From Acaryochloris thomasi RCC1774 (GTDB lineage: Bacteria; Cyanobacteriota; Cyanobacteriia; Thermosynechococcales; Thermosynechococcaceae): 32,000 bases of DNA. The notes under the pieces are model-generated. The model worked only from the letters and a program-made list of their open reading frames with translations, did not search any database and had not been told where the DNA came from. How positions within the stretch are numbered: the first letter of the stretch is position 1; each line of letters opens with the position of its first letter. A program made the translations under genes and the position numbers. The DNA lies in NCBI RefSeq assembly GCF_003231495.1, contig NZ_PQWO01000001.1, positions 300,001 to 332,000 of the forward strand, read 5' to 3'. Positions 414-29,412 of the stretch are shown piece by piece.

Positions 414-443
414 AATTTCTCTCACTAGGATCCAAATAAATAT

Positions 444-587: not shown

Positions 588-690
588 AGGAAGTCAGCTC
601 CGTGTGGGTGGGTGGACGAAAAGAAATGCTTGCGTCAATCCTACAAAATTGGCCTTCGCACTCTCTGAAAAATCTGCGAGGAACAGAAAA

Positions 691-1596: not shown

Positions 1597-1780
1597 GGCT
1601 AGCCAGATGAAGCAATGAACCTATCCTAGAGATATTGCTCTCCGGCCACGACTAGCCAGAAGCCTGACTTTTTACACAGTCACCAGTAGGGAGCTATCTC
1701 TACTGGGTAAGCGGGTGGCATCCATAGCGATGGGTGGGGAGGCACCCTAACCGATCGGCTAGGTTGACAGGCGTTGACTG

Positions 1781-5400: not shown

Positions 5401-8400
5401 ATCTTCGGTGGCAACTAGGCACTGGGCAGCAGCGTTAACGCTGTTGAGGAGACTGTCTCGCAGCTGTAGCTGCTGATTAAAGGTTTCCAGTTCAGTCGTG
5501 CGGGCTTGGGCAGCAGCTTCACGTTCTTTGCGAATGCGATCGCGGTCAATGGCGTTACCGATGCAGTCTGCCACCGTTTGCAGGGCAGCGAGTTCAGCGC
5601 TACTTCGCAGTCGTTGTTGGCGGCAGTCCCCAAACACGATCGTTCCCCAATAGTTGCCGCGCAGGATAATCGGAACGGAGTGTAAGGTTTGCACACCCAC
5701 AAAGGTCATGCTGCTGCGGAAGGGTTCTGTCATCTGCTCAGTTAACAGGCTAAATCCGTCTCCCCTTTGATGCAGGGCATAGAGCTGTTCGGCTCCGGCA
5801 TAGCTGCCCTGCATCGGCTCAGGATCGTGGATCTGAGCAACGGGTGTAATTCCAGGGGCTGTCCATTCATTAATGACGCGCCAGTGTCCTGGTTCTGTCT
5901 CAGTGAGATCTGCAAGATTTTCAGCAATGCCAACGCGATCGGTGCCCACGGCTTCACCAATGATTTGCATGGCTTCATTGAACGCTGTATCGAAGTCTAT
6001 GTCGGTGAGCAGGACATTTGAGACTGCTGCAGTGGCTTCCAGAATTAGATCACGCTCTTCTAAGGCTTGATTGTACGCCTCTAACTCTGTTGCTCGGATT
6101 AGAATAGCGGCCTCACGTTCTTTACGAATGCGATCGCGATCAATAGCATTACCAATACAGTTGGCGAGGGTTTTGAGAGCTTCGAGTTCAGCTTCACTGC
6201 GGCGAGTTAACTGGTGACAGTCATCAAAGGCAATTACTCCCCAAAAATTGTTGTCCACGTGGATGGGAATAGCGTAGGTAGACATAACGCCCAGCCCCAA
6301 TTGCTCGCTGCGAAAGGGTTCAGGTAGTTCATCAACGATGCCGCCAAAGGCATCTCCTCTTCGCAGAGCATCAACCGCAAATTCCATACCGCTGTCGCTG
6401 ATCCGTGCGAATGCAGGCAGATCCATTTGTCTGGGTGTGTTGTGGGTATTCCATTCATACAAGAATTGGTGATAGCCGGACTCTTGCTGAGAGATTGCTT
6501 CAAAATGCTCTCCCAAGTTGATGCGATCAACCTCTAGACCTTCACCGACAATTTGGAGGGCGGTATGGATGGCGCTGTCAAAGTCAATGGCTGTCAACAT
6601 CACGTTAGCAGCGGCGGCTGTCGCCTCTAGGATGCGATCGCGTTTCTCTAAAACTAAATTGTGGTTTTCCAACTCAACAGCACGAGTTTGGGCAAATTGT
6701 TCTCGCTCAAGTAATACATTCCGTTCGGCGGCTTCGCGAGCTTTGCGGATCTGTTCGCGTTCAATCGCGTTACCAATACAGCTTGCTGCCGTCTTGAATA
6801 CCGCTAGCTCCGCATCTGTTAGAAGTCTCTTTTCGCAGCAGTGATCAGTTCCAACGACCCCCCAAAAGCTACCTTCTACAAAAATAGGAATATTGTGTAC
6901 GGCCTGGGAGCCAACTTCTTGCTGCAGCTGTCGGAAACGTTCAGAGAAGTTATCGATTGTCTGCCCAAATGCCTTCCCATTAAGGTTGCGATAATACCAA
7001 TCTTCTATGCTCCAATCTTGCCAGCTGATATCCTGTAGACCTTCATAGTCAGACGTTTGTGAACTAATACCCGGTGAATCCCATTCGTACAGAATTCGCA
7101 AGAACCCGAGGGTTTCACCGACTGGATCATTGAATTGTTGAGCAACGAAAGCGCGATCGCATCCTACACTTTCGCCTAAGACTTGCAATGCTGAACTGAC
7201 TGCCGTATCAAAATCGCCATCACTGAGCAAGATATTTGAGGCCGTTGCTGTCGCTTCAAGGATGCGATCGCGTTTCTCTAAAACCTGATTGTGTGTTTCT
7301 AGCTCAGTGGCGCGCGTTTGAGCGAACTGTTCACGCTCTTTGATCACTGCTGTTTGTTTCGTTTCTTCAGCAAGCTGAGCCATTTGAATGGCAAGACCAG
7401 CTTGATCTGCAAGAGCGAAGATCAGTTCTTTCTCTTCAGGGGTAAGACTGTTTTTATCCGTGAAAGCTAAACCTAGCCAGCCGATCGCTCGATCGCCTGC
7501 TCTAAGGGCCAGTGCTGCCGCCTCTTGATGCCCCATCTGACGATGCCATTCCAAGGTTCCTGGCCAGAAGAGTGGCTCATCACTATTCATGCTAGCTAGG
7601 ATGATTTCCCTTGACTCACACATTAGGGCGTATGCAGGTGTGATGTTTGCAGGCACAGGAGCATGAAAAATTGGAGGGTCATGTTCAGCAGAGCCAGTTG
7701 TCATTTGGCCAAATCTGACGGATAGTCGCTGAGACAAAGTATCTGTCTTTGGATCGTGGAGAAAAATATGGCCTGCTGCTGCGCCAACTTGCTGGTTAAT
7801 CGTATCGACGACATGGCCCAAGAACACATCCAAATCATGTTCACTGGCTAACCGATTGAGGCTGTCTTTGAGAACGTTGCTGACCTGAGATAGCTCAATG
7901 GCCCGTTGCTGGGAGATGCGATCGCGTTCTTCAAGCAACGCTACCCGTTTAGTTTCTTCTGACAACTGGGTTAGCTGGATGGCCAAACTCATTTGGTGGG
8001 CCAGCGCGTAGCCCAGCTCAATTTGTTCATCGCTGAACTGCTGCGACTGGGGCAGATAAATCACCAGTGACCCAAAGGACGTTCCTCCCAAAGTCACCGG
8101 AATATTGACCTCCCGATGGGGCCGTACTCCCTGACGTTCGCACCAGCGCAACAACCTTGGATATACCTCAGCAACTAAGGGATCAGCCGCCAAATCATCA
8201 ATTAAGAAATGAGTGAGCCGTTCCTGAAGTTGCTCCTCATTGACCAGTTCTGACAGCACGGCAAACCCTTCAAGGCCAGGGTGCCCAGCCAGTTGCTCAG
8301 CAGTTGCAATTTCTCCCTGAACTGCAGCCTGCTCTATGTAGGCCACACTTTGTTCACTATGATGCCAATATTCAACTAAGGGCGCATTAAACTGCTGCGA

Positions 8401-10923
8401 TGCTGCCTGCAATACATAGCCGATGAAACGCTCTAACTCTGGCTCAGCAGCCAATGTATCTAATGTCTCTTTGAGAACATCGTTTGCTTTGGCCAGTTCT
8501 GCAACCCGATTTTGGGCCGCCTGTTCCCGCTCCTGAACAATTGCAGACTGTCGACTCTGTTCAGCTAAGTGAGTGAGCTGAACAGCTAAAGCGACCTGAT
8601 TGGTGAGGGCATAGCCTAGCTGTACTGCATGCTCTGAGAATGTTTGTCCTTCAGGTAATAAAACAGCGATTGACCCATAGGACCGATCGCCAAGGATAAC
8701 CGGAAAGTTAATTGCTTTATCTACGGGGTGAGTTACGCCATGCTGTTCACACCAAGTCCATACGTTTTGCACAATAGGAGAAGCAAATGGATTGTTGAGA
8801 GAAAAATCTGCCTCAATATGCTGAGTACGATGCAAAAGTTTTTCGTTATGGATTAATGGCGGCGGCACCGGAAAACCCTCAACGCCGTGATGCCCTACAA
8901 GCTTTTCACTGACTAAGATTTCTCCATTTACAACAGCCAGCTCTAGGTATGCAGTTTTATCTTCATGCCGCCAGTATTCTAAAAGAGGTGCATTGAATTG
9001 CTGCGCAATGGCTTGCAATACGTAGCCCAAAAAACGTTCCAGCTCTGGCTCAGTTGCCAATGTGTCTAAGGTTTCTTTGATGACATCATTAGCTTTGACA
9101 AGTTCTGTCACTCGGTCTCGGGCTGCCTGTTCGCGCTCTAACAACACATTGCGCTCGGCAGCTTCGCGGGCTTCGCGATTTTGTAGCTCTGCATCACGAA
9201 GTCGTTCGCGTTCAATAGCACTTCCAATACAGTCGGCAACAGTTTTTAAAACCGCTAGTTCAGCATCGCTTCGCTGTCGTGATACGCGACAATCGTCAAA
9301 GTAAATAATGCCCCAGTAGCGCCCCTGCAGCAGGATAGGAACCACGTGCATTGACTGTACGCCAATCTTTTGTTGAATATTGTGCAAGGGTCCGGATAGA
9401 TCATCGATCAAGAAACTAAATCCTTCGCCCCGAATAAACTGTGCATAGTGTTCTGCAACGCCTTCATAGGAACCCTGCATCAGTTCAGGATGATGTCTAT
9501 GTGCAACCAAGGCGGTGTGGGGAGAGTTCCATTCATAGACAACCTGCCACAGCCCAAAAGATGTCTCTGACGGATTTTCAAGATGTTCAACGATGCCCAC
9601 CCGATCGGTGTCAACGGCTTCCCCAACAATTTGCAGGGCTGTGTTGACAGCCTGATCAAAGTCTTCAATCGTGAGCAGAATATTTGCCGCCGCTGCTGTG
9701 GCTTCTAAGATGCGATCGCGCCCTTCTAAAACCTGATTGTGGGCTTCTAGCTCAGTCGCACGGGCCAAGGCAGTGGCTTCCTTTTGTTTTAGATTGCGAT
9801 CGCGTTCAATCGCATTCCCGATACAGGTCGCCGCCGTCTCTAAAACTGCAATTTCAGCATCAGACCAAACTCGCTCTGTAGTGCAGTCATCAAAACCCAG
9901 TACGCCCCACCACTGACCTGCCACCGAAATTGGAACCGCGACTAAGGATTGAGTTTGGCCCGCTACATTTACATCTCGTGCAACACCATCAAGGTCGCGA
10001 GTTAGAAGCTTGACCACTTGCCCTTGCGACATTGACTCGACAAGATGTGATGGGAAGGCATTCATTGCAAGAGGTAACGCATCGGCAACCACCGTCGAGG
10101 CAGGAATGCCGGGTGTTGTCCACTCGTAAGGGAGAGCCCAAAGAATCTCTTTTGTTTCAGGATCGAGAAGATTCTCAAACACATAAACTCGGTCTTGCTG
10201 AGTTCCTTCCCCTAAAATCTTGAGTGCTTCATGAATGGTCTGAGCAAAATCCTCACTGGCCACCAAACATTGTGCTGCCGCATTGACGCTGTTGAGTAAT
10301 GCATCCCGCTGCTGTAGCTGCTGGTTAAAGCTCTCCAAATCAGCCAGACTTGCTCGCCGCTGCAGCGCTCCTGCAAAGTTGGCTGCCGCCGTCTCAAGTA
10401 CCGCAATCTCTGCCTCGCTCCACACTCGTGCAGTGGTGCAGTCATCAAAGCCAAAATTGCCCCAATATATACCTTGTATAAAAATCGGCACCGTCAATAC
10501 TGACAGCGCCTGTTCTTGTTTCTGTTTCGCTTGGCCGGCTGCTGACATTTCCTGGGCCAGCTTTTGTACTGAGCGACCAGCCTTTAGCTCATTGAGCCAA
10601 TCGCGATAGCCGTCAATTTCGCTATACAACATCGGGTATTGGCCCGATATTTCACGACTTTTCACGACCTCTGGGACGGTCCACTCATAGGGGCAGGTCG
10701 CAAATTCTCTTTGGGTTTGAGGATCAACGTGGTTTTGGTAGATGAAGATGCGATCTATGCCAGCGGAGGTTGCGATCGCATCCAACGCCCCGTTCACTGC
10801 CGCATCAAAATCTGCGACAACTAAGAGCCGCCGTGCTGCTTCGGCGACCCCACTCAGCAGCGCATCTCGTCGCTGCGGCTCATCGGGTGGAGAGGGTAAA
10901 TGTCCGTTCGCCGTCGCAGTCAT
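2437..10923 (-). CDS. Giant multi-GAF sensor histidine kinase: 13 tandem GAF modules, then HisKA_3, then HATPase_c. No TM segment.
   Basis: One uninterrupted 8.5-kb ORF. The track start at 10941 is a TTG, and the first ATG is at 10923 (MTATANGH...). The GAF C-terminal signature (VPI..G..WG..FDDC....W...E...L...A..IG.AI.R, or the variant G.L..AF......L......L...LA.Q..LAIQ...LAE) occurs 13 times. The C-terminus has LAREIHDTLAQTF (HisKA_3 H-box, His codon at 3049-3051) and VIDNGKGF...GGFGLLGIRER (HATPase). Confidence 0.95.
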   Translation of the reverse strand: MTATANGHLPSPPDEPQRRDALLSGVAEAARRLLVVADFDAAVNGALDAIATSAGIDRIFIYQNHVDPQTQREFATCPYEWTVPEVVKSREISGQYPMLYSEIDGYRDWLNELKAGRSVQKLAQEMSAAGQAKQKQEQALSVLTVPIFIQGIYWGNFGFDDCTTARVWSEAEIAVLETAAANFAGALQRRASLADLESFNQQLQQRDALLNSVNAAAQCLVASEDFAQTIHEALKILGEGTQQDRVYVFENLLDPETKEILWALPYEWTTPGIPASTVVADALPLAMNAFPSHLVESMSQGQVVKLLTRDLDGVARDVNVAGQTQSLVAVPISVAGQWWGVLGFDDCTTERVWSDAEIAVLETAATCIGNAIERDRNLKQKEATALARATELEAHNQVLEGRDRILEATAAAANILLTIEDFDQAVNTALQIVGEAVDTDRVGIVEHLENPSETSFGLWQVVYEWNSPHTALVAHRHHPELMQGSYEGVAEHYAQFIRGEGFSFLIDDLSGPLHNIQQKIGVQSMHVVPILLQGRYWGIIYFDDCRVSRQRSDAELAVLKTVADCIGSAIERERLRDAELQNREAREAAERNVLLEREQAARDRVTELVKANDVIKETLDTLATEPELERFLGYVLQAIAQQFNAPLLEYWRHEDKTAYLELAVVNGEILVSEKLVGHHGVEGFPVPPPLIHNEKLLHRTQHIEADFSLNNPFASPIVQNVWTWCEQHGVTHPVDKAINFPVILGDRSYGSIAVLLPEGQTFSEHAVQLGYALTNQVALAVQLTHLAEQSRQSAIVQEREQAAQNRVAELAKANDVLKETLDTLAAEPELERFIGYVLQAASQQFNAPLVEYWHHSEQSVAYIEQAAVQGEIATAEQLAGHPGLEGFAVLSELVNEEQLQERLTHFLIDDLAADPLVAEVYPRLLRWCERQGVRPHREVNIPVTLGGTSFGSLVIYLPQSQQFSDEQIELGYALAHQMSLAIQLTQLSEETKRVALLEERDRISQQRAIELSQVSNVLKDSLNRLASEHDLDVFLGHVVDTINQQVGAAAGHIFLHDPKTDTLSQRLSVRFGQMTTGSAEHDPPIFHAPVPANITPAYALMCESREIILASMNSDEPLFWPGTLEWHRQMGHQEAAALALRAGDRAIGWLGLAFTDKNSLTPEEKELIFALADQAGLAIQMAQLAEETKQTAVIKEREQFAQTRATELETHNQVLEKRDRILEATATASNILLSDGDFDTAVSSALQVLGESVGCDRAFVAQQFNDPVGETLGFLRILYEWDSPGISSQTSDYEGLQDISWQDWSIEDWYYRNLNGKAFGQTIDNFSERFRQLQQEVGSQAVHNIPIFVEGSFWGVVGTDHCCEKRLLTDAELAVFKTAASCIGNAIEREQIRKAREAAERNVLLEREQFAQTRAVELENHNLVLEKRDRILEATAAAANVMLTAIDFDSAIHTALQIVGEGLEVDRINLGEHFEAISQQESGYHQFLYEWNTHNTPRQMDLPAFARISDSGMEFAVDALRRGDAFGGIVDELPEPFRSEQLGLGVMSTYAIPIHVDNNFWGVIAFDDCHQLTRRSEAELEALKTLANCIGNAIDRDRIRKEREAAILIRATELEAYNQALEERDLILEATAAVSNVLLTDIDFDTAFNEAMQIIGEAVGTDRVGIAENLADLTETEPGHWRVINEWTAPGITPVAQIHDPEPMQGSYAGAEQLYALHQRGDGFSLLTEQMTEPFRSSMTFVGVQTLHSVPIILRGNYWGTIVFGDCRQQRLRSSAELAALQTVADCIGNAIDRDRIRKEREAAAQARTTELETFNQQLQLRDSLLNSVNAAAQCLVATEDLSTALPAMLQILGEGTRQCRAYILQNSQDEQTHELIFNLTLEWNAPGIPTKREAGGRFPVPINAFPDHLTAPLKAGRSTQFLASELDGLDKRDQGQALSLVGVPITVEGEWWGLLGLDDCIYERVWSEAEIAVLETAATSIGNALERDLTRKEREAAANLRATELENHNLVLKKRDRILAATASAASSLLASEDFEQAVSLVLQTVGEALNTNEFGIVQTTGDPEDPASLRWAVLYKWDVEQGGSRATPEQPLEQGPCLQAWEWHQLLCRGHNFSATLDEMPEAFRQLSVQSGIQVRHGIPIFVAGQYWGMLGFSDRQGSPQRISAEFAALETAAACIGGAIEREQLRQAELLTRKAHEAAEREVLLAHERAARAVELETANQILSTRERWLDATAAAASELLANADVGASVDAALKTIGVNLGCDRIGIMQHFSEPTGLGYFRILYEWDSPNTLPQIVDPEINQLPANLFENWSRQLMADHWVGGLVAELDEPFRSTMQELNTLSTYAVPMFVEAEFWGLMFMDHCKEVRQLTPAELAVFNTAATCIGSAIYRDQMRAEREQAERDVLLQQEREQAAQQQATELAKANESLNRTIGALAENPELHEFLGLLLAELAQQTSACETHLFLYDAETHTLKQHCAVKDGHIYMGATPTDPDMFRHPFPADLTGAWQAILDAPNPLTFDDLGSWDESELSLWWPESIPWHRREGHRDVACARMKAGNQPIGFIGFAFRDRTSLTDGQLEFIQALTNQATLAIQLTRLAEQNQSAALVNERNRLAREIHDTLAQTFTGVSLQLEAVRGITTPANGAEPTLEDFNEAQTYIRRARDLARAGLSEARRSVRSLRSAALETDALPDALRKTLTQTTRDTGLETHFYLEGDPIPLPDDIQLNLLRISQEAVTNTLRYAQATQLDLTLSFTSQPNQQQVQLRVIDNGKGFDTTQLSQKGGFGLLGIRERTAHFEGTFELLSTPNIGTTLDIVIPLSP
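3150..10870 (-). repeat. Intragenic tandem array of 13 modules, each about 600 nt (coiled-coil linker plus GAF), inside the giant kinase
   Basis: The WG...C/AF signatures fall at roughly 10445, 9890, 9295, 8670, 8075, 7470, 6850, 6225, 5630, 5045, 4460, 3825 and 3205, a spacing of about 555-635 nt. An exact 26-nt repeat, aggatgcgatcgcgtttctctaaaac, occurs at 6629-6654 and 7259-7284, exactly 630 nt apart. A related stretch begins at about 9711. Confidence 0.8.
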
Positions 10924-11468
10924 AGTCGCGCTTGCCAGCAATAGAGACAGTCAATCAGTGACTCGATTTTCTCATGCAGTGGCTTTCCTTATCTTGCTTG
11001 CACGTCCTGAAAGCCAGTGACAGTAGACTTATTCTAATGACCCACGGCGTATATGTTAATCTTGCCCATTACGGCAAAGCAGTCTACCTAATTCTTGTTG
11101 TCCTCTATTATATTCTTGCGAAATCGCTCCACACGTATTCCGTCATACAGCCACCGAGAGAGACGTGAAGCGCAGCATCATTTTGTTTTTAAAGCTGTAA
11201 TCCCAGCTATACACCCACAATTAGATCAAATCGCGGACCTATAGCCATCAGAAAGTTATATTCAGATTTTATCTCTGTCTTAGAGGGTAAAACTGCAGAA
11301 AACGCAAATATGAGATAGCTATCGGTGATTAGCGACCCTAGCCGATCGATAGGGAAACAAGCCTTGCGATCGCTCAGCAAACATCCTGCGTTTGCGGTAG
11401 TCGTGTTTTCTAGAGCTATCTCTGACGATGGTAGAAGTAATACCCCCAACCCCGATGGGAATATCGAC

Positions 11469-12178: not shown

Positions 12179-13309
12179 CTACCGACGGAGAATCGCGGCT
12201 ATAGGAACGTTATCAAAAGGCATCTGCTCCAAAATATGAACCTGCCCGCCCCGCAGCCAGGTCTGTACTGCGGCAAAATTTAATAGATCGTCTAGCTCCT
12301 CGACCCTACTTTTTTGCAACTCAATCTTGTCAGTCTGTGGATTGAAGCGACCCCAGATCTGTCTCCCAGCAGCCACGAATAAAGTCTCAACTTGGCCATT
12401 GTGAGCCGCTCGAACAATACCCTGTAAATCGGTATGGGTTTGCTCTGTTGAAGATAAATATCGGTATTGTGAGATCGCCTGTTGCTTCACGTGCTGAAAA
12501 TGGGGGGCAACCGTCTGCCAAGCGTACTGATGCAGTGATTCAGAACTGAGCAATTCTTGATTATCTGCTCTGCATGTATGAAGTATAGACGTACAGGGAT
12601 TAGCACGCTGATAAATAGAACACAGAGCTTCCGTCCCCATCAAGAGCAAAGGTATCTGCGGATCATGCCGCCAAGACATCACTCGCTCATTGATCTTTTG
12701 AAAGCGGCGAAAAATTTCACTATCTGCGCGGTCAAGCCCTTGTCTCTGATCAACAGGAGAATGGCTGATGGTACTGCGATCGTAACGTTGAAGTTGTTCT
12801 TCAAAATTGTCGCGGAGTAAGACTTTCGCAAGACTTTGAGGCACGTCCGCTAGATTAAGGGGTTCAATGGAGTGTTGAGTTGCCCGAAAGAGTCGGGGCT
12901 GATTTTGGTGCACCGCCAGAATTAAAAATTTCGTGTTCTCCGTGAGCAGTGGCAGCAAAGGTTTGAGATGAAAGCGATGGGTAACAATGGCCAAGGTTCG
13001 GAAACGGATGGGCAGTGAGTAGGTGCGAAATATCTCTGGACTACAGAAAATTGCCAGCCCCTGCCGCTGCTGCCCAAAGTCATGCTGCTCAATCAGTGCC
13101 TTCAATGATCTAAGCAGCGCCACGGCATCGAATGGGAACCATTTTCCGGTTGCGAGCTGGACCTGAACCTCGTTGAGTAGACGCCTCAAACGGATAGGAG
13201 CAGAGGGAGCCTGCTGTTCTGTCAAGTCAGTGGGCATATAGATCGAGACCCGGGGTCTACCCGTTGACTCCATCAATTCCTTTAGTTGGGTCTCATGTAG
13301 AAATGTCAT
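12179..13309 (-). CDS. Hypothetical protein, candidate bacterial eRF1/Pelota-like (baeRF-type) domain protein
   Basis: The ORF track start at 13330 is a GTG, and the first ATG is at 13309 (MTFLHETQLKELMESTGRPRVSIYMPT...). The N-terminal VSIYMPT...IRLRRLL, the mid-protein HRFHLKPLLPLL and the C-terminal LRGGQVHILEQMPFDNVPIAAILRR resemble baeRF families as I recall them. The C-terminal part matches the eRF1/Pelota domain-3 ending GG..AILR[YF]. This is recall only and no HMM search was run. Confidence 0.65.
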   Translation of the reverse strand: MTFLHETQLKELMESTGRPRVSIYMPTDLTEQQAPSAPIRLRRLLNEVQVQLATGKWFPFDAVALLRSLKALIEQHDFGQQRQGLAIFCSPEIFRTYSLPIRFRTLAIVTHRFHLKPLLPLLTENTKFLILAVHQNQPRLFRATQHSIEPLNLADVPQSLAKVLLRDNFEEQLQRYDRSTISHSPVDQRQGLDRADSEIFRRFQKINERVMSWRHDPQIPLLLMGTEALCSIYQRANPCTSILHTCRADNQELLSSESLHQYAWQTVAPHFQHVKQQAISQYRYLSSTEQTHTDLQGIVRAAHNGQVETLFVAAGRQIWGRFNPQTDKIELQKSRVEELDDLLNFAAVQTWLRGGQVHILEQMPFDNVPIAAILRR

Positions 13310-13708
13310 TGATGTAGATTGCCACGGCACTCACGCAAGTCATACTGGCACCGGGGACCGACTCTGCAATACTCTCTGAAGCTGCCGCAGCGCTGTAAAC
13401 CTCAAAATCCTGCCAACTAGAGATCCATAGCCTCACCGAGTTGCCGAAGCTGTGAATGTATCTATATACAATCTAGGAGAACAATGCCTGAGCAAGCATC
13501 CACCATTGGTTATAAATAGAACTAATACTTAGAATCCATATTTCTTATGTTTCTGAGCAAGCGGGCTTTCGAGCAGCTCAGCTCGCTTCTCGATTAATCA
13601 CCATAACTTTTGCGCATGTTTACCAGCACCGCCTGCTTTACAAAGTTATGGACCGTATACTGTGACTACCGTGCCCTGTCGATGTAAGTCGAGCGAAAGA
13701 ATGCCAGC

Positions 13709-16300
13709 ATGACCGATTCCCTACTCAGCAGTAGAATTTTAATCGTGGATGATTCGGAGAGTGATCGGGCGATTTGTCGTCGGTACTTAAAAGCGTCGAG
13801 AACTTGGAATTACGACATCTTGGAATGTGAGTTAGGAGCCGAGGCTCTGGCACTCTGCAAGCAAGAGCAGCCTGATATCGTACTGCTCGACTACCGATTG
13901 CCGGACACCAATGGCCTAAAACTTCTGCAAGATCTGATCGTACAACTAGAGATACCGCCCATTGTGATTGTGCTCACCAGCCAAGAGGATGAAGAAATTG
14001 CTGTAGCAGTCATAAAAAATGGTGCCAAGGATTACCTCATCAAAGGGCAGCTCACGCCAGAAAAACTAGAAAGGTCCATTGCCCGTGCCCTAGCGGAGCA
14101 AACCCTGCAGTCACAGATTCAGCGCCAGCGGCAGCAAAACGCGCTGTTTGCCGATCTGGCCTCGGGTATCAATCGTGCGGTTGAACTCTCACAAATATTG
14201 CAGGCTGCGGTGGATGGCGTTCGTCGATTGCTGAGGTGCGATCGCACCCTTATTTACCAGTTCGAACCCGACATGAGCGGGACCACAGTAGCTGAGTCAG
14301 TCTTACCAGAATGGAGCGCAACCCTCGGCTACCAGCTAGAGGACAATTGCTTCCAGGGGGCCCAAAGCTATCAAGCTGAGAAATATCTGCAGGGCCATAA
14401 GATGGCGATCGCAAACATTGCCGAGAGCCATCTGTCTGTCTGTCATATCAAGATGCTGCAGCGGTTTCAGGTCAAGGCCAGTCTTGTGGTTCCGATTATC
14501 GATACAGCAAACGTAACGGGTACGACCAGGCTGTGGGGATTGCTGATTGCTCACCATTGCCAGACGATACACAACTGGACTGCGGAAGAACTGAATTTGT
14601 TGGGTGAAATCTCGGTGCAGGTTGCGATCGCAACACAGCAGGCCGCACTGACCACAAGCTTGAAGATCAGCCTGGAAAAACAGCAAAAGACAGAACAAGC
14701 GCTGCAGCAAAATCAGACCCAACTGCAGGCGATCTTAGATAACGCCCCGTCGGTGATTTACCTCAAGGAACCGGAAGGGCGTCTTCAGCTCATCAATCAG
14801 GAATTTCAAACGATCTTTGGTCTCTCGGAAGCAGAGGCAATTGGCAAAACCGATGCTGAGCTATTTCCTCCAGAGGTCGCTGCTGAATTCGGGATCAATG
14901 ATCGCCAGGTTGTTGCTTCGGGCCAGCCCCTATTTACAGAAGAGGTTGTTCGGCAGACCGATGATGAATGGCATACCTACCTATCGATTAAGTTTCCGAT
15001 TTTCGACGCTGAGGGGCAGGTCGTTCAGATCGGCGGCATTGCCACCGATATCACTGAGCGCAAGCAAATGGAGCAGGCACTCAGAACCTATCAGGAACGG
15101 ATGCACCGCTTTACGGAGTCCGATTTGATCGGCATTCTTTTTGGCGATACCAAGGGGGGAATTCAGGAGGCCAACGACGAGTTTTTGCGCATTGTCGGCT
15201 ACAGTCGCCAGGAACTCAAAAACAATCAGGTCCGCTGGGATGACCTGACGCCACCGGAGTACCTGCCGCTGGACCAGGCTAGGATCGCCGAAGCGCAGAA
15301 ACGGGGAAGCTGTACACCTTACGAGAAAGAATATGTTCGCAAAGACGGCAGCCGCATTCCGGTCTTGATTGGCTATATCTTGATGGGAGAGACTCGTACC
15401 CAGTCTGCGGCTTTTATTCTCGACATTACCGAGCGCAAACGAGCCGAACGAGAGCTGCAGACCATTAATACAGAACTAGAGCAACGGGTCGAAGATCGGA
15501 CGGCGGAGCTGACGGCATCAAATGCAGACCTGAAAGCAGAAGTGGTGGAACGACTGGGCAGTGAGCGTCAACTGAGGCAGACCGCTGAACAGCTGAGCAC
15601 CTCTAATCGAGCACTACAGGACTTCGCTTATGTGGCCTCCCATGATCTGCAGGAGCCACTGCGTAAAATTCAGGCTTTTGGCGATCGCCTCACAGTGAAG
15701 TATGCTCCACAACTTGGGGACCAAGGACGGGACTACCTGCGGCGGATGCAGAGTGCGGCCCAGCGGATGCAGATCTTAATCGATGATTTGCTCGCTTACT
15801 CCCGCATTAGCACCCGGGTTCAGCCCTTCGAAGCCGTCAATCTTGACGACATTGTGCGCGGCGTGCTCTCGGATCTTGAAGCCCGCCTCGAAAAAACGCA
15901 GGGTCAGGTTCAGGTCAACGCGCTGCCCACACTTGAAGCGGATCCAGTGCAGATGCGACAACTGTTCCAAAATTTGATTGGTAATGCCCTCAAATTCCAT
16001 CAGCCAGGCATCCCGCCTCAGATCGTCGTTTCTCAGTCTGCTGCTGCAGAGCAAGAAGTAGAGCTGCAGATTCAAGACAACGGTATTGGGTTCAACACCA
16101 AATATCTAGACCGCATCTTTACCCCCTTTGAGCGTCTCCACAGTCGGTCTGCTTACGAGGGCACCGGCATGGGACTGGCGATCTGTCGTAAAATCGTTGA
16201 GCGCCATGGCGGTCAGCTCACTGCGATCAGCGCTGATGGCGAAGGTGCAACGTTCATCATTACCCTGCCCTATACCCAGCCCCACGATCATGAGCAGTAG
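13709..16300 (+). CDS. Hybrid sensor histidine kinase: REC, GAF (candidate DXCF-class cyanobacteriochrome), PAS, PAS, HisKA, HATPase_c
   Basis: 863 aa. REC: ILIVDDSESD...VLLDYRLPDTNG...VLTSQ...DYLIKG. GAF: DRTLIYQF...VAESV...LEDNCF...YLQGHKMAIANI...SVCHIKMLQRFQVKASLVVPI...LWGLLIAHHC. Two PAS domains each end in DITERK. The H-box is FAYVASHDLQEPLRKI (His codon 15641-15643). HATPase motifs: DNGIGF and GTGMGLAICRKIVERHGG. Confidence 0.95.
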   Translation: MTDSLLSSRILIVDDSESDRAICRRYLKASRTWNYDILECELGAEALALCKQEQPDIVLLDYRLPDTNGLKLLQDLIVQLEIPPIVIVLTSQEDEEIAVAVIKNGAKDYLIKGQLTPEKLERSIARALAEQTLQSQIQRQRQQNALFADLASGINRAVELSQILQAAVDGVRRLLRCDRTLIYQFEPDMSGTTVAESVLPEWSATLGYQLEDNCFQGAQSYQAEKYLQGHKMAIANIAESHLSVCHIKMLQRFQVKASLVVPIIDTANVTGTTRLWGLLIAHHCQTIHNWTAEELNLLGEISVQVAIATQQAALTTSLKISLEKQQKTEQALQQNQTQLQAILDNAPSVIYLKEPEGRLQLINQEFQTIFGLSEAEAIGKTDAELFPPEVAAEFGINDRQVVASGQPLFTEEVVRQTDDEWHTYLSIKFPIFDAEGQVVQIGGIATDITERKQMEQALRTYQERMHRFTESDLIGILFGDTKGGIQEANDEFLRIVGYSRQELKNNQVRWDDLTPPEYLPLDQARIAEAQKRGSCTPYEKEYVRKDGSRIPVLIGYILMGETRTQSAAFILDITERKRAERELQTINTELEQRVEDRTAELTASNADLKAEVVERLGSERQLRQTAEQLSTSNRALQDFAYVASHDLQEPLRKIQAFGDRLTVKYAPQLGDQGRDYLRRMQSAAQRMQILIDDLLAYSRISTRVQPFEAVNLDDIVRGVLSDLEARLEKTQGQVQVNALPTLEADPVQMRQLFQNLIGNALKFHQPGIPPQIVVSQSAAAEQEVELQIQDNGIGFNTKYLDRIFTPFERLHSRSAYEGTGMGLAICRKIVERHGGQLTAISADGEGATFIITLPYTQPHDHEQ
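14185..14650 (+). other. GAF domain carrying both cyanobacteriochrome cysteine motifs: DXCF (DNCF, Cys214, codon 14348-14350) and the canonical CH (Cys245-His246, 14441-14446)
   Basis: DNCF is encoded at 14342-14353 and VCH at 14438-14446. The two Cys are 31 residues apart. The surrounding context, [S]VCH...L..FQVKA.LVVPI followed by WGLL.AHHC, matches bilin-binding CBCR GAFs. Confidence 0.65.
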
Positions 16301-16751
16301 TCCACAAAGCCAATCTGTTCCCATTCTGATGGCAGAGGATGACGAGGACGATCGCCTCCTCACCCAAGAAGCATTCGTTGAAAGCAGTCTAATCAACCCG
16401 CTACACTTCGTTGAAGATGGCGAAGAACTTCTTGACTACCTGCACCAGCGAGGCCGCTATACCGACGCGACCCAATCTCCGCGTCCGGGGCTGATCTTGT
16501 TAGACTTAAACATGCCCAAGAAAGATGGTCGTGAGGCGCTAATCGAGATCAAGGCAGATAAGAGTTTGCGACACATCCCGGTGGTGGTAATGACCACTTC
16601 GAAAGCAGAAGAGGACGTAGTGCGCTCCTATTCGTTGGGCGTGAGTTCATTCATCATCAAGCCGATCACTTTTGAGCAACTTGTTGAAGTGATTCAGGGG
16701 CTGGGTCGCTACTGGTTTGAGATTGTAACCCTACCGTCGGGAGAAAGCTGA
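16290..16751 (+). CDS. Single-domain response regulator (CheY-like, phytochrome-associated Rcp1-like family)
   Basis: The ORF track gives 16128..16751. The real start is probably ATG 16290 (MSSSPQSQSVPILMAEDDEDD), which overlaps the upstream kinase stop (16298-16300) by 11 nt. The segment PRPGLILLDLNMPKKDGREALIEIK...IPVVVMTTS...SFIIKP...YWFEIVTLP closely resembles Rcp1-type regulators. Confidence 0.9.
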   Translation: MSSSPQSQSVPILMAEDDEDDRLLTQEAFVESSLINPLHFVEDGEELLDYLHQRGRYTDATQSPRPGLILLDLNMPKKDGREALIEIKADKSLRHIPVVVMTTSKAEEDVVRSYSLGVSSFIIKPITFEQLVEVIQGLGRYWFEIVTLPSGES

Positions 16752-16755
16752 CAAT

Positions 16756-17970
16756 ATGGTGGATCAGGCTATTCAGGTACTGCTGGTTGAAGATGACGAA
16801 GATGATTATTTGTTAATTCGTGATTTGCTCTCTGAAGTGCCAGAACAGCGGTTCCAGCTTGACTGGGTAAAGACATTTTCCGAGGCCGCCGATCAGATTC
16901 AGCGACAGCCCTACAGCGTTTATCTGGTGGACTATCGGCTGGGTGAACAAAACGGCCTGGAACTGATGGCGTTGGTCAATCAGCAGGATGCTCCGGCCCC
17001 GGAGATTATTCTCAGCGGTCAGGGCGATCGCAACTTAGATATTACCGCTCTCAAATCTGGCGCTGCCGACTACTTAGATAAAGCAGACCTACAGGCATCA
17101 CTGCTAGAGCATTACATTCGAGCCTCCATTGAACGGAATCGCGCTCAACTGGCGCTGCAGGAGAGCGAAAAAAGATATCGGGACCTCTATCAGCAGGAGA
17201 AATTACTGCGCAGTGAGCTTGCACGAGCCAACACGGAGCTAAAGGATTTTGCCCATACGGCCTCCCATGATTTGCAGGAACCCCTGCGGGCGGTCTCTGG
17301 ACATATTTCACTCCTGCAGGACAAGCTGTTCGACGATCGCTCTGTTTTGACGCAGGATGCTGAGGTTCAAGAGTATTTCGGCTTCATCGCTGCCGGGACG
17401 CGGCGGATGCAGACGCTGGTTCACGATCTGCTGGTCTATTCTCGGGTCGGGACGCGGGATCTGGTGCTCAAAGACGTAGACTGTGGCGAAAGCGTGGAAG
17501 ATGCGATCGCAAACCTCCACATCGCCATTACTGAAGCTAAAGCCGAGATTATTTACGATGATTTGCCTCATTTGCGGGCCGACGCCACTCAGATGATGCA
17601 GTTGTTTCAAAATCTAATCAGCAACGCCATCAAGTTTCGGCATCCTGACACCCCACCCCACATCACAATTCAGGCAGACCCCATTCCGGCCGCGCAGTGG
17701 CGCTTTAGCATCACCGATAACGGCATTGGCATTGACCTTGAAGAGTGCGATCGCATCTTTAAAATTTTTAAGCGGCTACATACGCAGCAAGAGTTCGCCG
17801 GTACCGGCATGGGTCTGACCGTCTGCGAAAAAATCGTAGATCGACACGGCGGCAAAATTTGGGCCGAGTCTCAGCCAGGGGCAGGAGCGACCTTTTGGTT
17901 CATTTTGCCGCAGAATCCCCCAGAGCGAATTGACCCCCCGTTGCCCAACCCACCGACGTTAGATGCGTGA
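16756..17970 (+). CDS. REC-HisKA-HATPase_c hybrid histidine kinase (the receiver is the only input domain)
   Basis: 404 aa, starting 4 nt after the preceding stop. REC: VLLVEDDEDD...VYLVDYRLGEQNG...ILSGQ...DYLDK. A coiled-coil linker follows. H-box: FAHTASHDLQEPLRAV. HATPase: TDNGIGI...GTGMGLTVCEKIVDRHGG. Confidence 0.95.
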   Translation: MVDQAIQVLLVEDDEDDYLLIRDLLSEVPEQRFQLDWVKTFSEAADQIQRQPYSVYLVDYRLGEQNGLELMALVNQQDAPAPEIILSGQGDRNLDITALKSGAADYLDKADLQASLLEHYIRASIERNRAQLALQESEKRYRDLYQQEKLLRSELARANTELKDFAHTASHDLQEPLRAVSGHISLLQDKLFDDRSVLTQDAEVQEYFGFIAAGTRRMQTLVHDLLVYSRVGTRDLVLKDVDCGESVEDAIANLHIAITEAKAEIIYDDLPHLRADATQMMQLFQNLISNAIKFRHPDTPPHITIQADPIPAAQWRFSITDNGIGIDLEECDRIFKIFKRLHTQQEFAGTGMGLTVCEKIVDRHGGKIWAESQPGAGATFWFILPQNPPERIDPPLPNPPTLDA

Positions 17971-18204
17971 TGCCTTCGGAGCACGAGTTGTGCAAGAGAT
18001 CCGCTTTTAATAGGAGGTCTCCTTTGTTAAAGCCACAGCAACTGGCGTTAGCCCAATTGCTGCAAAAAGGTGTTTGTGAGTTGCGCTCCTTTTGAGGCAT
18101 GATCCGCTTCGACAACCTAACCAGCCGGAGAAATCCTGCAAACTTCTAGCGATCGCTGGGCAATAGGCAGGACAGCCTGCACAGAATTTTATCGGGGACG
18201 AACT

Positions 18205-18233
18205 TTGACGCAAGTATATATCTCTAATACTAT
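18205..18233 (+). promoter_or_regulatory. Candidate sigma-70-type promoter (TTGACG, 17-nt spacer, TACTAT) upstream of the third kinase gene
   Basis: TTGACG at 18205-18210 and TACTAT at 18228-18233, with an exact 17-nt spacer. It lies in the 338-nt gap that interrupts the kinase cluster, about 75 nt upstream of ATG 18309. This is a motif match only. Confidence 0.3.
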
Positions 18234-18308
18234 CTTTACAATTCTGTAATATTGTTAAGATGGGCTTGATATGCCTGTCGAAAACGATCGCATCCGAGTG
18301 ATGAATCT

Positions 18309-19424
18309 ATGCCAGCCCTCTCAATCTTGGTCGTTGAAGACAGTCCTAGCGACACAAATCTACTGCGCCAAATTTTTATCCGCACAGGGCGGGTAGACTG
18401 GTCCCTGACGACGGCAGAACGTCTTAGCGAAGGTCTTGAAATTGCTCAGCAGTCTTACTTTGACGTCGTCTTGCTCGATCTTTCTCTGCCTGACTCTGAG
18501 GGACTAGAGACGGTCAGTACCTTTGTCGAGAGGGTACCCAAGCTCCCCATCGTGGTGCTCACCATTGCCGATGACGAACAACTGGCGCTCGATGCCATCC
18601 ACCAAGGCGCACAGGATTATCTGGTTAAAGGCGAAATTACCTCAGCGCTTCTGGTGCGGGCCATCCAGCACGGTATTGAGCGAGAACGACTGGTGCGCCA
18701 ACTACGGGAAGCCAACGCAGAACTGGCTTCGTTTAGCTACTCAGTGGCCCACGACTTGAGATCGCCCCTGCGGGCCATCGAAGGCATCAGTCAGGCGCTC
18801 AAAGAAGACTATGCCGATGTCTTAGACGAGCGGGGGATCGACTACACCGATCGGATTATCGATAGCACCACTCGACTCTCTCGCCTCATTGAAGATTTGT
18901 TGACCTATAGCGGCCTCGGGAAAGCGGAGCTATCGGTGGGTACGGTGGATTTAAATGTTGCGATCGCAGATGCCCTAACGCTAATTGAGACAGACATTGA
19001 GCAGCAGCAAGCCGAGATTAAAGTCGAGCCATCCCTGCCCTCTGTGAAGGGGAACCAACAGACGCTAGTGCAGGTGATCAGCAACCTGCTCTCTAACGCC
19101 ATTAAGTTTGTTCCCAAAGCCACCCAGCCCCATATTTACCTCCACGCAGAGCAAGTCGACTCACCCCCGCAGCGCTCCCAGTCCAGTCGTGATACCTGGG
19201 TCCGACTTTGGATAGAAGACAACGGTATCGGCATCGCCCCTCAACACCAGGAGCGAATTTTTGGCGTATTTGAGCGCCTCCACGGTCAAGAAAGCTATGC
19301 AGGCACCGGCATTGGTCTCGCCATTGTCAAAAAATGTATTGAGCATTTAGGCGGTAGAGCGGCCGTCGAATCCCAGCTCGGTCAGGGCAGTCAGTTTTGG
19401 ATTGAGCTACCAAAATCTCAGTAG
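18309..19424 (+). CDS. REC-HisKA-HATPase_c hybrid histidine kinase
   Basis: 371 aa. REC: ILVVEDSPSD...VVLLDLSLPDSEG...VVLTIADD...DYLVKG. H-box: FSYSVAHDLRSPLRAI. HATPase: EDNGIGI...GTGIGLAIVKKCIEHLGG. Confidence 0.95.
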   Translation: MPALSILVVEDSPSDTNLLRQIFIRTGRVDWSLTTAERLSEGLEIAQQSYFDVVLLDLSLPDSEGLETVSTFVERVPKLPIVVLTIADDEQLALDAIHQGAQDYLVKGEITSALLVRAIQHGIERERLVRQLREANAELASFSYSVAHDLRSPLRAIEGISQALKEDYADVLDERGIDYTDRIIDSTTRLSRLIEDLLTYSGLGKAELSVGTVDLNVAIADALTLIETDIEQQQAEIKVEPSLPSVKGNQQTLVQVISNLLSNAIKFVPKATQPHIYLHAEQVDSPPQRSQSSRDTWVRLWIEDNGIGIAPQHQERIFGVFERLHGQESYAGTGIGLAIVKKCIEHLGGRAAVESQLGQGSQFWIELPKSQ

Positions 19425-19487
19425 AGAAATCCGGCACAAATTAGTCCAGACAACCGCAACGCTCATCCAATACCTCTCTTAACAAAG

Positions 19488-19496
19488 TGTTACAAT
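19488..19496 (+). promoter_or_regulatory. Candidate extended -10 element (TGtTACAAT) upstream of the second single-domain response regulator
   Basis: tgttacaat at 19488-19496, about 105 nt upstream of ATG 19601. I found no convincing -35. This is a motif match only. Confidence 0.2.
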
Positions 19497-19600
19497 CTAG
19501 AAAACATTAGAAACAGCGCTTAGAGGTATCGTCCTCTGCTGTGCGGTGATTAACCAATTACTTGCTCGGTCTTACTCTCTTTCTAGGAATTTAAAGTCTT

Positions 19601-20056
19601 ATGAGTCAGCATCGCCCTACCGTTTTACTGGTCGAAGATGATGCAAATGATGTTCTGCTGCTGCGGCGTGCCCTTGCGAAAGCTCAGCTCGGTTCAGTTG
19701 ATTTAAAGACAGTGAGTGACGGAGATGCGGCGATTGCCTATCTCTCTCAGCAGGCACCTTACAACGATCAGGACAAACACCCGCTGCCCACCCTGCTATT
19801 GCTTGATATTAAGCTGCCCTGCCGTTCAGGGCTAGAGGTGCTTGAATGGATTCGACAGCAGCCTCAGCTCAAGCGTCTGCTGGTGATCATTCTGACAGGG
19901 TCCAAGGAGCAACCCGACCTTGAAAAAGCCTATGATCTGGGCGTAAACTCATACTTAGTGAAGCCTGGCATTTTTGCGGACCTCGTCGACCTAATGAAGA
20001 CCCTCCATAATTACTGGCTCAGTCTCAACGAGCATCCTCAGTTGTCCTTGACTTAA
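19601..20056 (+). CDS. Single-domain response regulator (phytochrome-associated type)
   Basis: 151 aa. The sequence TVLLVEDDANDVLLLRRAL...PLPTLLLLDIKLPCRSGLEVLEWIR...VIILTGS...NSYLVKP...YWLSLN has all phospho-acceptor pocket residues present. Confidence 0.9.
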   Translation: MSQHRPTVLLVEDDANDVLLLRRALAKAQLGSVDLKTVSDGDAAIAYLSQQAPYNDQDKHPLPTLLLLDIKLPCRSGLEVLEWIRQQPQLKRLLVIILTGSKEQPDLEKAYDLGVNSYLVKPGIFADLVDLMKTLHNYWLSLNEHPQLSLT

Positions 20057-20078
20057 TCTCTCTATCTCAGACAGCAGT

Positions 20079-22010
20079 ATGGCCCCAGTGCGGTTGCTTT
20101 TAATTGATGATAGCCCCAACGACCGCCTACTGGCTGTCCGGCAGCTAAAGCAAGAGTTCTCAGAGCTACAGCCATTAGAAGTCTGCGATGCAGAGGGGCT
20201 GACCCAAGCGCTGAACGAAAACCGCTTTGACATCGTGATTACCGACTATCAACTGCGCTGGACCACGGGACTTGACGTTCTCGAAGAAATCAAGCAGCGC
20301 CGTCCAGACTGTCCGGTCGTGATGTTCACCGGGACAGGCTCGGAAGAGATTGCCGTCACCGCCATGAAGGCGGGCCTAGACGACTACGTGGTTAAGTCGC
20401 CCCAGCACTACGTGCGGCTAGCTAAAGCCACTCAGATCGCTTGGGAGCGCACCCAACAGCAGCAGGCCCTCAAGGAGGCTGAAGAGCGTTATCAGCGTTT
20501 ATTTGAAGAAGTCCCCATTGGTTTATATCGACTCACCCGAGAGGGGAAGCTATTAGACGCCAACCGCCGCTTCCTAGAAATACTAGGTTACGAGAGCAAA
20601 GATGAGGTTTTAGCCACAGACGTCGTCAATGATTGCATTGCAACGGCGGCAAGCGGTCTGTGGACGGCTCAACTCGATGTCACAGACGCAACCCAGAGCG
20701 TTTCGACTCATCTCCGTCACCGCAGCGGAGATGAAATTTGGGTTCGCCACTACGTCCGTTTAGTTCGCAATCCGCAGGGGAACACACAGTATTACGAAGG
20801 CGCGATTGAAGATATTACGGCCTACCGTCGTACTGAATTAGAGCGTAATCAGCTTCTGATCAGCGAACGTAAGGCCCGTGCCGAGGCCGAAACGGCAAAC
20901 CGGGTTAAGGACGAATTTTTAGCCACGGTTTCCCATGAGCTACGCACCCCCCTCAATGCCATGCTGGGCTGGGTGCAGCTTTTACGGGGCGGCCAATTGA
21001 GTGAGGAGAAGTCTGCAAAAGCAATCGAGATTATTGAGCGCAATGCGATCGCACAAAATCAGCTAATCGACGACCTGCTGGATGTCTCTCGGATCATTCG
21101 CGGCAAACTCAAGCTGAAAGTGAAGGCTATTCCACTGCGAAACATTGTCAATGCCGCCTTAGATACGGTCCGTCACGCCGTTGAAAATAAGCAGATTCAG
21201 CTAGAAACCGACTTCGCTCCCTCCGTCACCTTAGTCAATGGCGATCAGGAGCGCCTGCAGCAGGTGTTCTGGAACCTACTCACCAATGCGGTGAAGTTCA
21301 CGCCAGAAGGGGGCAAAATTACGATCCGTGTTGAGAGTAAGCCAAATTGTGCTCAGGTTCAGATCGTTGACACTGGCCAAGGCATTGAGCCAGGGCACCT
21401 GCCCTATATGTTTGAACGCTTCCGGCAGGCCGATGAGTCCTCGACACGCCAAAAGGGGGGATTGGGGCTGGGATTAGCAATTGTCCGCCACTTGGTCGAG
21501 CTGCACGGTGGTGTTGTCACAGCAGAGAGTGCTGGAACCGGTCAAGGCTCTACCTTTATGGTTCAGCTACCGCTGTTCGATACCGTTCAGCCCCTAGCCC
21601 AAATTTCTTTGCCGGCCGATCAGTCTCTTCCTTCTTTAAAGAACCTGCAGCTCTTGGTGGTGGAAGACGAAGACGATGCCCGTGAGATGCTGACGCTGTT
21701 GCTAGAGCAATGTGGCGCTCAGATTTCAGCCGTGGGTTCAGTCTCAGCAGCGATGGCGCATTTGGCGCATCACACCCCGCACCTCATTATTTCTGACATC
21801 GCTATGCCGGTCGAAGATGGCTACACGCTGATCCGGCAGTTGCGAGCGGAGGGCAGACAGATAGTTGCAATCGCATTAACGGCCTACGCCAGAGAACAGG
21901 ACAAAACGGCAGCCCTCCAGGCAGGTTTTAATCATCATCTACCTAAGCCTGTGGACCCAAACCAGCTTGTTCAGCTGATCGCCAATCTTCGGCAGGCGGG
22001 AGAGATTTGA
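20079..22010 (+). CDS. Hybrid histidine kinase: REC, PAS, HisKA, HATPase_c, REC
   Basis: 643 aa, starting 22 nt after the upstream response regulator. N-terminal REC: LLLIDDSPND...IVITDYQLRW...MFTGTGS...DYVVKS. The PAS domain ends in EDITAYRR. H-box: FLATVSHELRTPLNAM. HATPase: VDTGQGI...GGLGLGLAIVRHLVELHGG. C-terminal REC: LLVVEDEDDA...LIISDIAMPVEDG...ALTAYA...HLPKP. Confidence 0.95.
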   Translation: MAPVRLLLIDDSPNDRLLAVRQLKQEFSELQPLEVCDAEGLTQALNENRFDIVITDYQLRWTTGLDVLEEIKQRRPDCPVVMFTGTGSEEIAVTAMKAGLDDYVVKSPQHYVRLAKATQIAWERTQQQQALKEAEERYQRLFEEVPIGLYRLTREGKLLDANRRFLEILGYESKDEVLATDVVNDCIATAASGLWTAQLDVTDATQSVSTHLRHRSGDEIWVRHYVRLVRNPQGNTQYYEGAIEDITAYRRTELERNQLLISERKARAEAETANRVKDEFLATVSHELRTPLNAMLGWVQLLRGGQLSEEKSAKAIEIIERNAIAQNQLIDDLLDVSRIIRGKLKLKVKAIPLRNIVNAALDTVRHAVENKQIQLETDFAPSVTLVNGDQERLQQVFWNLLTNAVKFTPEGGKITIRVESKPNCAQVQIVDTGQGIEPGHLPYMFERFRQADESSTRQKGGLGLGLAIVRHLVELHGGVVTAESAGTGQGSTFMVQLPLFDTVQPLAQISLPADQSLPSLKNLQLLVVEDEDDAREMLTLLLEQCGAQISAVGSVSAAMAHLAHHTPHLIISDIAMPVEDGYTLIRQLRAEGRQIVAIALTAYAREQDKTAALQAGFNHHLPKPVDPNQLVQLIANLRQAGEI

Positions 22011-22034
22011 AGGGAGCGTCTCCCAACATCTAAC

Positions 22035-29356: not shown

Positions 29357-29381
29357 ATCAACAAACGCAATGATTGACTGC

Positions 29382-29412
29382 AAAAAGCCCAGGCAACGGT
29401 GCTGCCTGGGCT
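29382..29412 (-). terminator. Rho-independent terminator ending the small-gene (CsbD) operon
   Basis: The minus strand reads agcccaggca-gcaccgt-tgcctgggct followed by ttttt. This is a perfect 10-bp GC-rich stem (29386-29395 paired with 29403-29412), a 7-nt loop and a T5 tract (29382-29386). It sits 32 nt downstream of the CsbD stop. Confidence 0.8.

Follow-up and report, generated by a model that had tools for sequence, protein, structure and literature searches.

A candidate two-Cys (DXCF) cyanobacteriochrome in a REC-linked, predicted dual-sensor histidine kinase of Acaryochloris thomasi RCC1774

The window analysed here, a 32-kb stretch (32,000 nucleotides, nt) of the Acaryochloris thomasi RCC1774 genome, carries at 13709-16300 (+) an open reading frame (ORF) for an 863-residue kinase with the domain order REC-GAF-PAS-PAS-HisKA-HATPase (Pfam). 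The GAF domain (residues 159-308) is read as a candidate bilin-binding, two-Cys cyanobacteriochrome (CBCR) of the DXCF type, forming part of a dual-sensor histidine kinase (HK) resembling PPHK of [Leptolyngbya] sp. JSC-1; a probability of roughly 0.6 is attached to this combined reading, which is drawn from sequence and predicted fold. That the domain is a bilin-binding CBCR at all is very probable, and a reversible adduct at Cys214 is given somewhat better than even odds. The direct observations comprise residues, alignment, conservation, fold, colinearity of REC, helix and GAF with PPHK, and gene order. The features of the gene are as follows:

13709-16300 (+), kinase gene, REC-GAF(CBCR)-PAS-PAS-HisKA-HATPase (translation, Pfam, protein match)
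13736-14071 (+), REC, residues 10-121 (Pfam; aligned with the REC of PPHK)
14072-14182 (+), REC-GAF linker, one continuous helix (model residues 117-156) running from REC alpha5 into the GAF
14183-14632 (+), GAF of the CBCR type, residues 159-308 (Pfam; PDB and Foldseek matches)
14342-14353 (+), DXCF motif Asp212-Asn213-Cys214-Phe215 (alignment with TePixJ D492-P-C494-F)
14363-14371 (+), clade-specific 3-residue insertion just past DXCF, approximately Gln219-Ser220-Tyr221 (alignment)
14396-14401 (+), His230-Lys231, with His230 at the TePixJ Arg507 position (alignment)
14441-14446 (+), Cys245-His246, the canonical bilin-attachment position (alignment with TePixJ C522-H523)
14720-15433 (+), two PAS domains, residues 338-453 and 475-575 (Pfam)
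15614-16276 (+), kinase core, HisKA residues 636-701 and HATPase_c residues 745-856 (Pfam)

With 100% identity the protein matches PZD74988.1 / WP_110984286.1 of A. thomasi RCC1774, which is annotated as "Phytochrome-like protein cph1"; Pfam finds neither a PAS_2 nor a PHY domain in it, and no NCBIfam equivalog model passes its cut-off, so that no specific family is assigned. The first-pass annotation of this DNA, made from the letters alone, had described the architecture as REC-CBCR-PAS-PAS-HK with the GAF at 14185-14650; Pfam agrees on the former and sets the latter at 14183-14632, while the ORF, quoted peptides and residue numbers of that annotation all recur in the translation. The REC active site is complete at the motif positions (Asp14-Asp15, phospho-acceptor Asp61 at nt 13889-13891, Thr90 and Lys112), the predicted phospho-His is His645 in HisKA (nt 15641-15643), and neither PAS domain contains a LOV-type NCRFLQ motif. 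A paralogue of the kinase (P0085) is present in A. thomasi. Furthermore, phycocyanin is found in strain RCC1774, along with phycobiliprotein genes (PMC6002478), and the host therefore makes phycocyanobilin (PCB). An antisense ORF of 128 residues at 14336-14722 (-), inside the GAF-coding stretch, is most likely spurious.

The case for a two-Cys photosensor begins with the register of the two cysteines. In a MAFFT alignment of 116 GAF domains with TePixJ (the sequence used being an exact match to PDB 3vv4), RcaE, PPHK and NpR6012g4, Asp212-Asn-Cys214-Phe215 falls on Asp492-Pro-Cys494-Phe495 of TePixJ, and Cys245-His246 on its Cys522-His523. Thus, the earlier proposals that a D-N-C-F motif lies 31 residues before the canonical Cys, that the CH dipeptide forms a bilin-attachment context and that both cysteines would align with those of a characterised DXCF GAF are all borne out. 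Cys214 (in LEDNCFQGA, nt 14348-14350) is the candidate second Cys for addition to bilin C10; Cys245 (in HLSVCHIKM, nt 14441-14443) also coincides with the canonical Cys of RcaE (248, counted from the published Leu249/Phe252/Lys261 numbering), which is followed there by Leu249. The N-terminal register is gap-free against TePixJ, with the second Cys 17 residues past the Ser of the AESV strand and a Trp at +5. The spacing of 31 between the cysteines, instead of the 28 typical of the other DXCF GAFs retrieved, is due to 3 residues that the whole clade has inserted just past the DXCF motif. In characterised proteins the second Cys serves in C10 ligation and in the isomerisation of PCB to phycoviolobilin (PVB) (bioRxiv 10.1101/2020.12.27.424465; PMC7332365).

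The pocket residues Asp212, Tyr226, His246 and His282 are present, as are Leu250 and Phe253 (Cys+8), and Ser258 stands at an Asn/Thr position. The arginine at the position of TePixJ Arg507, typical of DXCF CBCRs but not universal, is replaced by His230 in the window GAF; this position contacts the C-ring propionate, and AM1_6305g1 of Acaryochloris marina, with Gln there, is yet photoactive (bioRxiv 10.1101/2020.12.27.424465). From its place beside His230, Lys231 is a plausible substitute for the propionate contact.

The second line of evidence is conservation within a group of related GAFs, referred to here as the DNCF/QGHK clade, which was counted over 66 cluster representatives, all with the 3-residue insertion. 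Every one of them (66/66) has Cys214, and 65/66 have Cys245 (the member without the first Cys being P0096); Tyr226 is found in 65 and His282 in 62, and position 212 holds Asp in 60 and Glu in five. His230 is present in 56/66, position 231 is Lys or Arg in 58/66, position 236 is Asp in 47 and Asn in 19, and the residue 258 position is mostly Asn (24), Ile (24) or Val (15). The first-pass annotation had flagged GH (Gly229-His230) for GR and ANI (Ala235-Asn236-Ile237) for ADI as deviations; the residues are indeed there but, given that GH is the clade norm and Asn236 occurs in 19 representatives, both are lineage traits and not defects. Position 246 is His in 55/66 and Tyr in 11, and the Tyr is unevenly distributed: it accompanies Glu212 in 5/5 members, as against 6 of the other 61. 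Reversible Cys ligation is switched on in a different Acaryochloris DXCF lineage when the His beside the first Cys becomes Tyr (bioRxiv 10.1101/2020.12.27.424465), and the covariation of Glu212 with Tyr246 therefore suggests that the clade has probably diversified in its photocycle.

The extent of this clade emerges from several searches. A full-length search brought up many REC-GAF-HK proteins, about 570-620 residues long, and two proteins of 735-739 residues, with GAFs sharing 53-72% identity with the window GAF. A word-index search with the GAF gave nothing but short proteins, and a contig scan with the full protein was dominated by generic kinase patterns and yielded no orthologue. Searching a representative library with the GAF gave thousands of homologues, the closest single-domain match being P0026 (73% identity), and in a neighbour-joining tree the window protein groups with P0026 and P0027 inside the clade; a sister clade without the insertion carries DTCF...GHK, and TePixJ and RcaE both fall outside. 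REC-GAF proteins retrieved with PPHK as query have both cysteines in 78/150 GAF matches and Tyr at the second-Cys position in 20. On sequence, then, the window GAF is a member of a DXCF clade of its own, one that occurs in REC-GAF kinases, and not of the TePixJ/Tlr0924 lineage. The earlier label of a TePixJ/Tlr0924-type sensor accordingly survives for the position of the DXCF motif, which shares the TePixJ register, but fails for the lineage.

The fold and its nearest structural relatives point the same way. The significant PDB sequence matches of the GAF are all bilin-binding GAFs, with RcaE as the best (E-value 5e-32), followed by PPHK (1e-28) and TePixJ (8e-21), and with further matches to NpR6012g4, miRFP670nano, Slr1393g3 and AnPixJg2. 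An AlphaFold2 model of residues 144-324 has a mean pLDDT (predicted local distance difference test) of 91.0, and its best 50 Foldseek matches are all bilin-binding GAFs (CBCR or phytochrome), among them PPHK, miRFP670nano, AnPixJg2 and TePixJ; the single-GAF structures have a target-normalised TM-score of about 0.84-0.95. When the query is extended to residues 1-330, the PDB top match becomes PPHK (6oap/6oaq/6ob8, "dual sensor histidine kinase"; residues 8-315, E 1.7e-63, 39% identity). The corresponding model (pLDDT 91.7) has an unbroken helix at 117-156 linking REC and GAF and a long C-terminal GAF helix at 292-329; it matches the PPHK chains over 312-317 columns (Foldseek E about 1e-34), the next matches being single GAFs at 1e-16. 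By sequence and predicted structure, the sensor of the window kinase is thus a PPHK-type dual-sensor module, combining a REC with an intact active site, a long helix and a CBCR GAF. The earlier suggestion that a photoreceptor would here sit under phospho-control gains, by analogy, a solved precedent in PPHK and agrees with the complete REC site.

The sensor head appears to have a history separate from that of its output module. REC and GAF (13709-14698) are 48-72% identical to the phytochrome-linked family described below and to P0026/P0027, whereas the PAS-PAS and kinase portion (14699-16300) is 72-75% identical (PAS-PAS 75%, kinase 72%) to P0028, a kinase for which Pfam records neither REC nor GAF; between the kinase core of the window protein and that of the approximately 590-residue family, identity reaches only about 32%. 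From this split in identity it follows that the dual-sensor head is, as judged from sequence, joined to a different, foreign output module, the fusion being placed in the ancestor of P0025/P0026/P0027.

The genes surrounding the kinase are these:

12179-13330 (-), gene of the baeRF (bacterial archaeo-eukaryotic release factor-like) family, divergent, upstream of the kinase
16290-16751 (+), single-domain response regulator, in the same arrangement at L085
16756-17970 (+), REC-HisKA-HATPase, a Rec-controlled histidine kinase
18309-19424 (+), second REC-HisKA-HATPase kinase
19601-20056 (+), second single-domain response regulator
20079-22010 (+), REC-PAS-HisKA-HATPase-REC hybrid kinase
22035-23009 (-), sigma-70 factor gene, group-2-like, convergent

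The window kinase stands first in a run of six kinase and receiver genes, which packs four kinases and six receiver domains into 8.3 kb. The response regulator probably starts at an ATG at 16290, in which case its first 11 nt (16290-16300) lie within the kinase gene, and the REC-kinase gene at 16756-17970 begins 5 nt past the regulator stop; the overlap and the short gap suggest that kinase, regulator and REC-kinase form one translationally coupled operon. LvrB has recently been described as a Rec-controlled kinase with this same REC-HisKA-HATPase architecture (PMC13269768). At the locus of the closest homologue, P0026 (L085), the order baeRF, kinase, receiver and REC-HK is as in the window, with the baeRF gene (438-1668 (-), called as two ORFs) adjoining P0026. 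Scans for promoters and terminators across 13300-22100 gave counts not above those of shuffled sequence.

The 32-kb window holds no phytochrome gene. For the clade members of about 590 residues, 5/5 loci examined have a PAS_2-GAF-PHY-HK phytochrome and a single-domain receiver immediately upstream of the gene; these loci come from Acaryochloris sp. CCMEE 5410, from Chamaesiphon polymorphus and from three metagenomic organisms, and differ in their outer flanks:

L081 1934-6587; L083 5110-9770; L086 2759-7770; L087 3034-7806; L088 2790-7767, loci of phytochrome, receiver and REC-GAF(DNCF)-HK

The linked phytochromes have an N-terminal Cys in NCDREPIH and are of the bacteriophytochrome type. Phytochrome, receiver and REC-GAF(DNCF)-HK look like a conserved three-gene module with two photoreceptors.

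Elsewhere in the window, an ORF at 2437-10941 (-) encodes 2833 residues with at least six GAF matches, HisKA_3 and HATPase_c, and is followed by a NarL-type response regulator (1781-2419 (-)) and an AraC-type regulator (691-1596 (-)); its GAFs, tested as further CBCRs, have no detectable similarity to the CBCR GAF of the kinase. Four genes for MscS-type mechanosensitive channels lie just beyond the sigma-70 gene (23082-24230 (-), 24227-25399 (-), 26808-27695 (+) and 28004-29383 (-)).

By homology with characterised CBCRs, PCB would be attached autocatalytically through ring A (C3^1) to Cys245. The Cys214 thiol would, in the 15Z dark state, add to the C10 methine bridge, splitting the conjugation and giving a violet- or blue-absorbing form, and light would drive 15Z-to-15E isomerisation with elimination of Cys214, leaving a photoproduct anywhere from teal to orange; its exact colour is not predictable from sequence, as it hinges on whether phycoviolobilin is formed from PCB. 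The signal may then travel down the C-terminal GAF helix, cross the two PAS domains and reach the kinase core, where it would change autophosphorylation at His645. Phosphorylation of Asp61 in REC would provide a second input, conveyed by the 40-residue helix to the GAF as in PPHK. The phosphoryl group would pass to the coupled regulator (16290-16751) and probably on into the relay of the downstream Rec-kinase.

Several observations weigh against this scheme, in part or in whole. Identity of the window GAF to TePixJ is only 31%; the propionate-contacting Arg507 of TePixJ is His230 here; the 3-residue insertion immediately after DXCF could shift Cys214 relative to C10; and PPHK, the characterised relative, which is regarded as a red/green CBCR, carries Tyr in place of the second Cys. 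A literature search, with the key CBCR surveys outside its reach, found no characterised member of the clade. Further, some DXCF CBCRs keep the second Cys and form no adduct, for example AM1_6305g1, a green/teal protein (bioRxiv 10.1101/2020.12.27.424465). This last point supplies the main alternative, which bears on Cys214, namely that the bilin sits on Cys245 while Cys214 forms no stable C10 adduct, either aiding the conversion of PCB to phycoviolobilin or remaining idle, so that a one-Cys green, teal or yellow photocycle would run without a blue or violet dark state. In the lineage of AM1_1499g1 and AM1_6305g1 the second Cys has been retained and reversible ligation lost, which a His-to-Tyr change restores (same preprint), and the window protein has His246 where 11/66 clade members, including all five with Glu212, have Tyr; the insertion and the exchange of Arg for His230 may likewise change the geometry. 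TePixJ, however, has Cys-His at this site and forms the adduct nonetheless, and this alternative is considered unlikely, although not far-fetched. The invariance of Cys214 (66/66) fits either role and does not discriminate between them.

The two-Cys CBCR reading must also be set against two alternatives that concern the nature of the GAF itself. It might be no photoreceptor at all but an apo or small-molecule-binding domain whose cysteines are structural or redox-active, as His230 in place of Arg507 and Asn236 in place of the Asp of the usual ADI could indicate. About one in seven of the A. marina DXCF candidates studied by Hasegawa et al. in 2018 reportedly failed to bind a chromophore. Against this stand the pocket hallmarks (Asp212, Tyr226, Cys245-His246 and His282), all kept and conserved, the identity of every PDB sequence match as a bilin protein, the conserved Lys/Arg after His230, which could assume the propionate contact, and the lack of detectable similarity to the non-CBCR GAFs of ORF 2437-10941; a domain without photoreceptor function is hence judged quite improbable. 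Assignment to the green/red protochromic CBCRs of the RcaE/CcaS type is more improbable still. RcaE (PDB 7ckv, 8k9o) is the top PDB match for the lone GAF and shares with it a loop insertion of 6-7 residues after the VVPI strand, but its identity to the window GAF is only 36%, it has Val at the second-Cys position, and the tree separates it from the clade. None of the three residues of its protochromic triad (Glu217/Leu249/Lys261; bioRxiv 10.1101/2020.12.08.414581) is kept, the aligned equivalents being Asn213 (or Asp212), His246 and Ser258, and the RcaE/CcaS lineage was rejected on the triad and the tree.

Neither DXCF CBCRs nor REC-GAF dual-sensor kinases are new, which makes the window protein a credible and fairly ordinary photoreceptor candidate; less ordinary are the signature of its clade, the clade's steady association with bacteriophytochrome operons, and the sensor head transplanted in the window. 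If the two-Cys CBCR reading is true, the protein would be a short-wavelength, two-Cys version of PPHK, the only structurally understood kinase with light-plus-phosphorylation logic; it would also offer a spectrum for a populous clade of at least 66 sequence clusters, apparently never characterised, in which most of the approximately 590-residue members examined are wired to bacteriophytochromes. In A. thomasi, it would be the likely light input to the six-gene kinase and receiver cluster. The variation within the clade (His/Tyr by the first Cys, Asp/Glu in the motif, His-Lys for Arg and the +3 insertion) amounts to a set of natural mutants bearing on second-Cys ligation, and the chimera implies a portable REC-GAF sensor head, of interest for optogenetic design. 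A wider proposal, which is speculative and held to be rather improbable, is that the DNCF/QGHK clade (+3 insertion, His-Lys for Arg) constitutes a CBCR sub-lineage with a photocycle of its own, serving as a second colour channel beside a bacteriophytochrome and its regulator (a red/far-red plus short-wavelength logic gate), and that in A. thomasi this head was moved to a foreign PAS-PAS-kinase feeding a multi-tier relay of two single receivers, two Rec-controlled kinases and one hybrid, ending near the group-2-like sigma gene; a light and phosphorylation logic module would then have been rewired in nature.

Among known systems, TePixJ (GAF in PDB 3vv4, 4glq) is the prototype blue/green DXCF CBCR, and the window GAF has in common with it the DXCF and Cys-His register, a Tyr before QG, an AH(H/Q)C motif and the GAF fold. 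The two differ in Cys spacing (31 against 28), in His230 for Arg507, in Phe253 for a Leu at Cys+8, and in the 6-7 residue loop after the VVPI strand, which TePixJ lacks; TePixJ is, moreover, part of a protein of the methyl-accepting chemotaxis type, whereas the window protein is a kinase. The A. marina DXCF lineage of AM1_6305g1 and AM1_1499g1 has its isomerisation and ligation tuned at the equivalents of His230 (Gln/Arg), His246 (His/Tyr), Leu250 (Leu/Tyr) and Ser258 (Asn/Thr) (bioRxiv 10.1101/2020.12.27.424465). Its published description, with a spacing of 28 and no link to REC, would set it apart from the window GAF, and its numbering (second Cys 99 or 118, first Cys, Gln112) implies another architecture.

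The nearest solved relative is PPHK, the best structural match of the GAF model and the REC-GAF model alike. It shares with the window protein an N-terminal REC with a conserved active site, one long helix and a CBCR GAF, colinear and with a gap of only 1 residue in the linker, and one of its PDB entries, a BeF3- complex, marks its REC as one that accepts phosphorylation. PPHK has Asp-Gln-Tyr-Phe, and hence no second Cys, where the window protein has DNCF; the residue matching His230 is Arg, both insertions are absent, and the protein is regarded as a red/green CBCR whose Pg state lies at 562 nm. In the PPHK type the kinase core would be expected to follow the GAF directly, whereas two PAS domains intervene in the window protein. 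PPHK is said, on the account of Shin et al. (PNAS, 2019), to merge light and phosphorylation as a logic OR and to work with an upstream photoreceptor. The approximately 590-residue relatives of the window protein likewise stand behind a bacteriophytochrome and a response regulator; the window gene does not.

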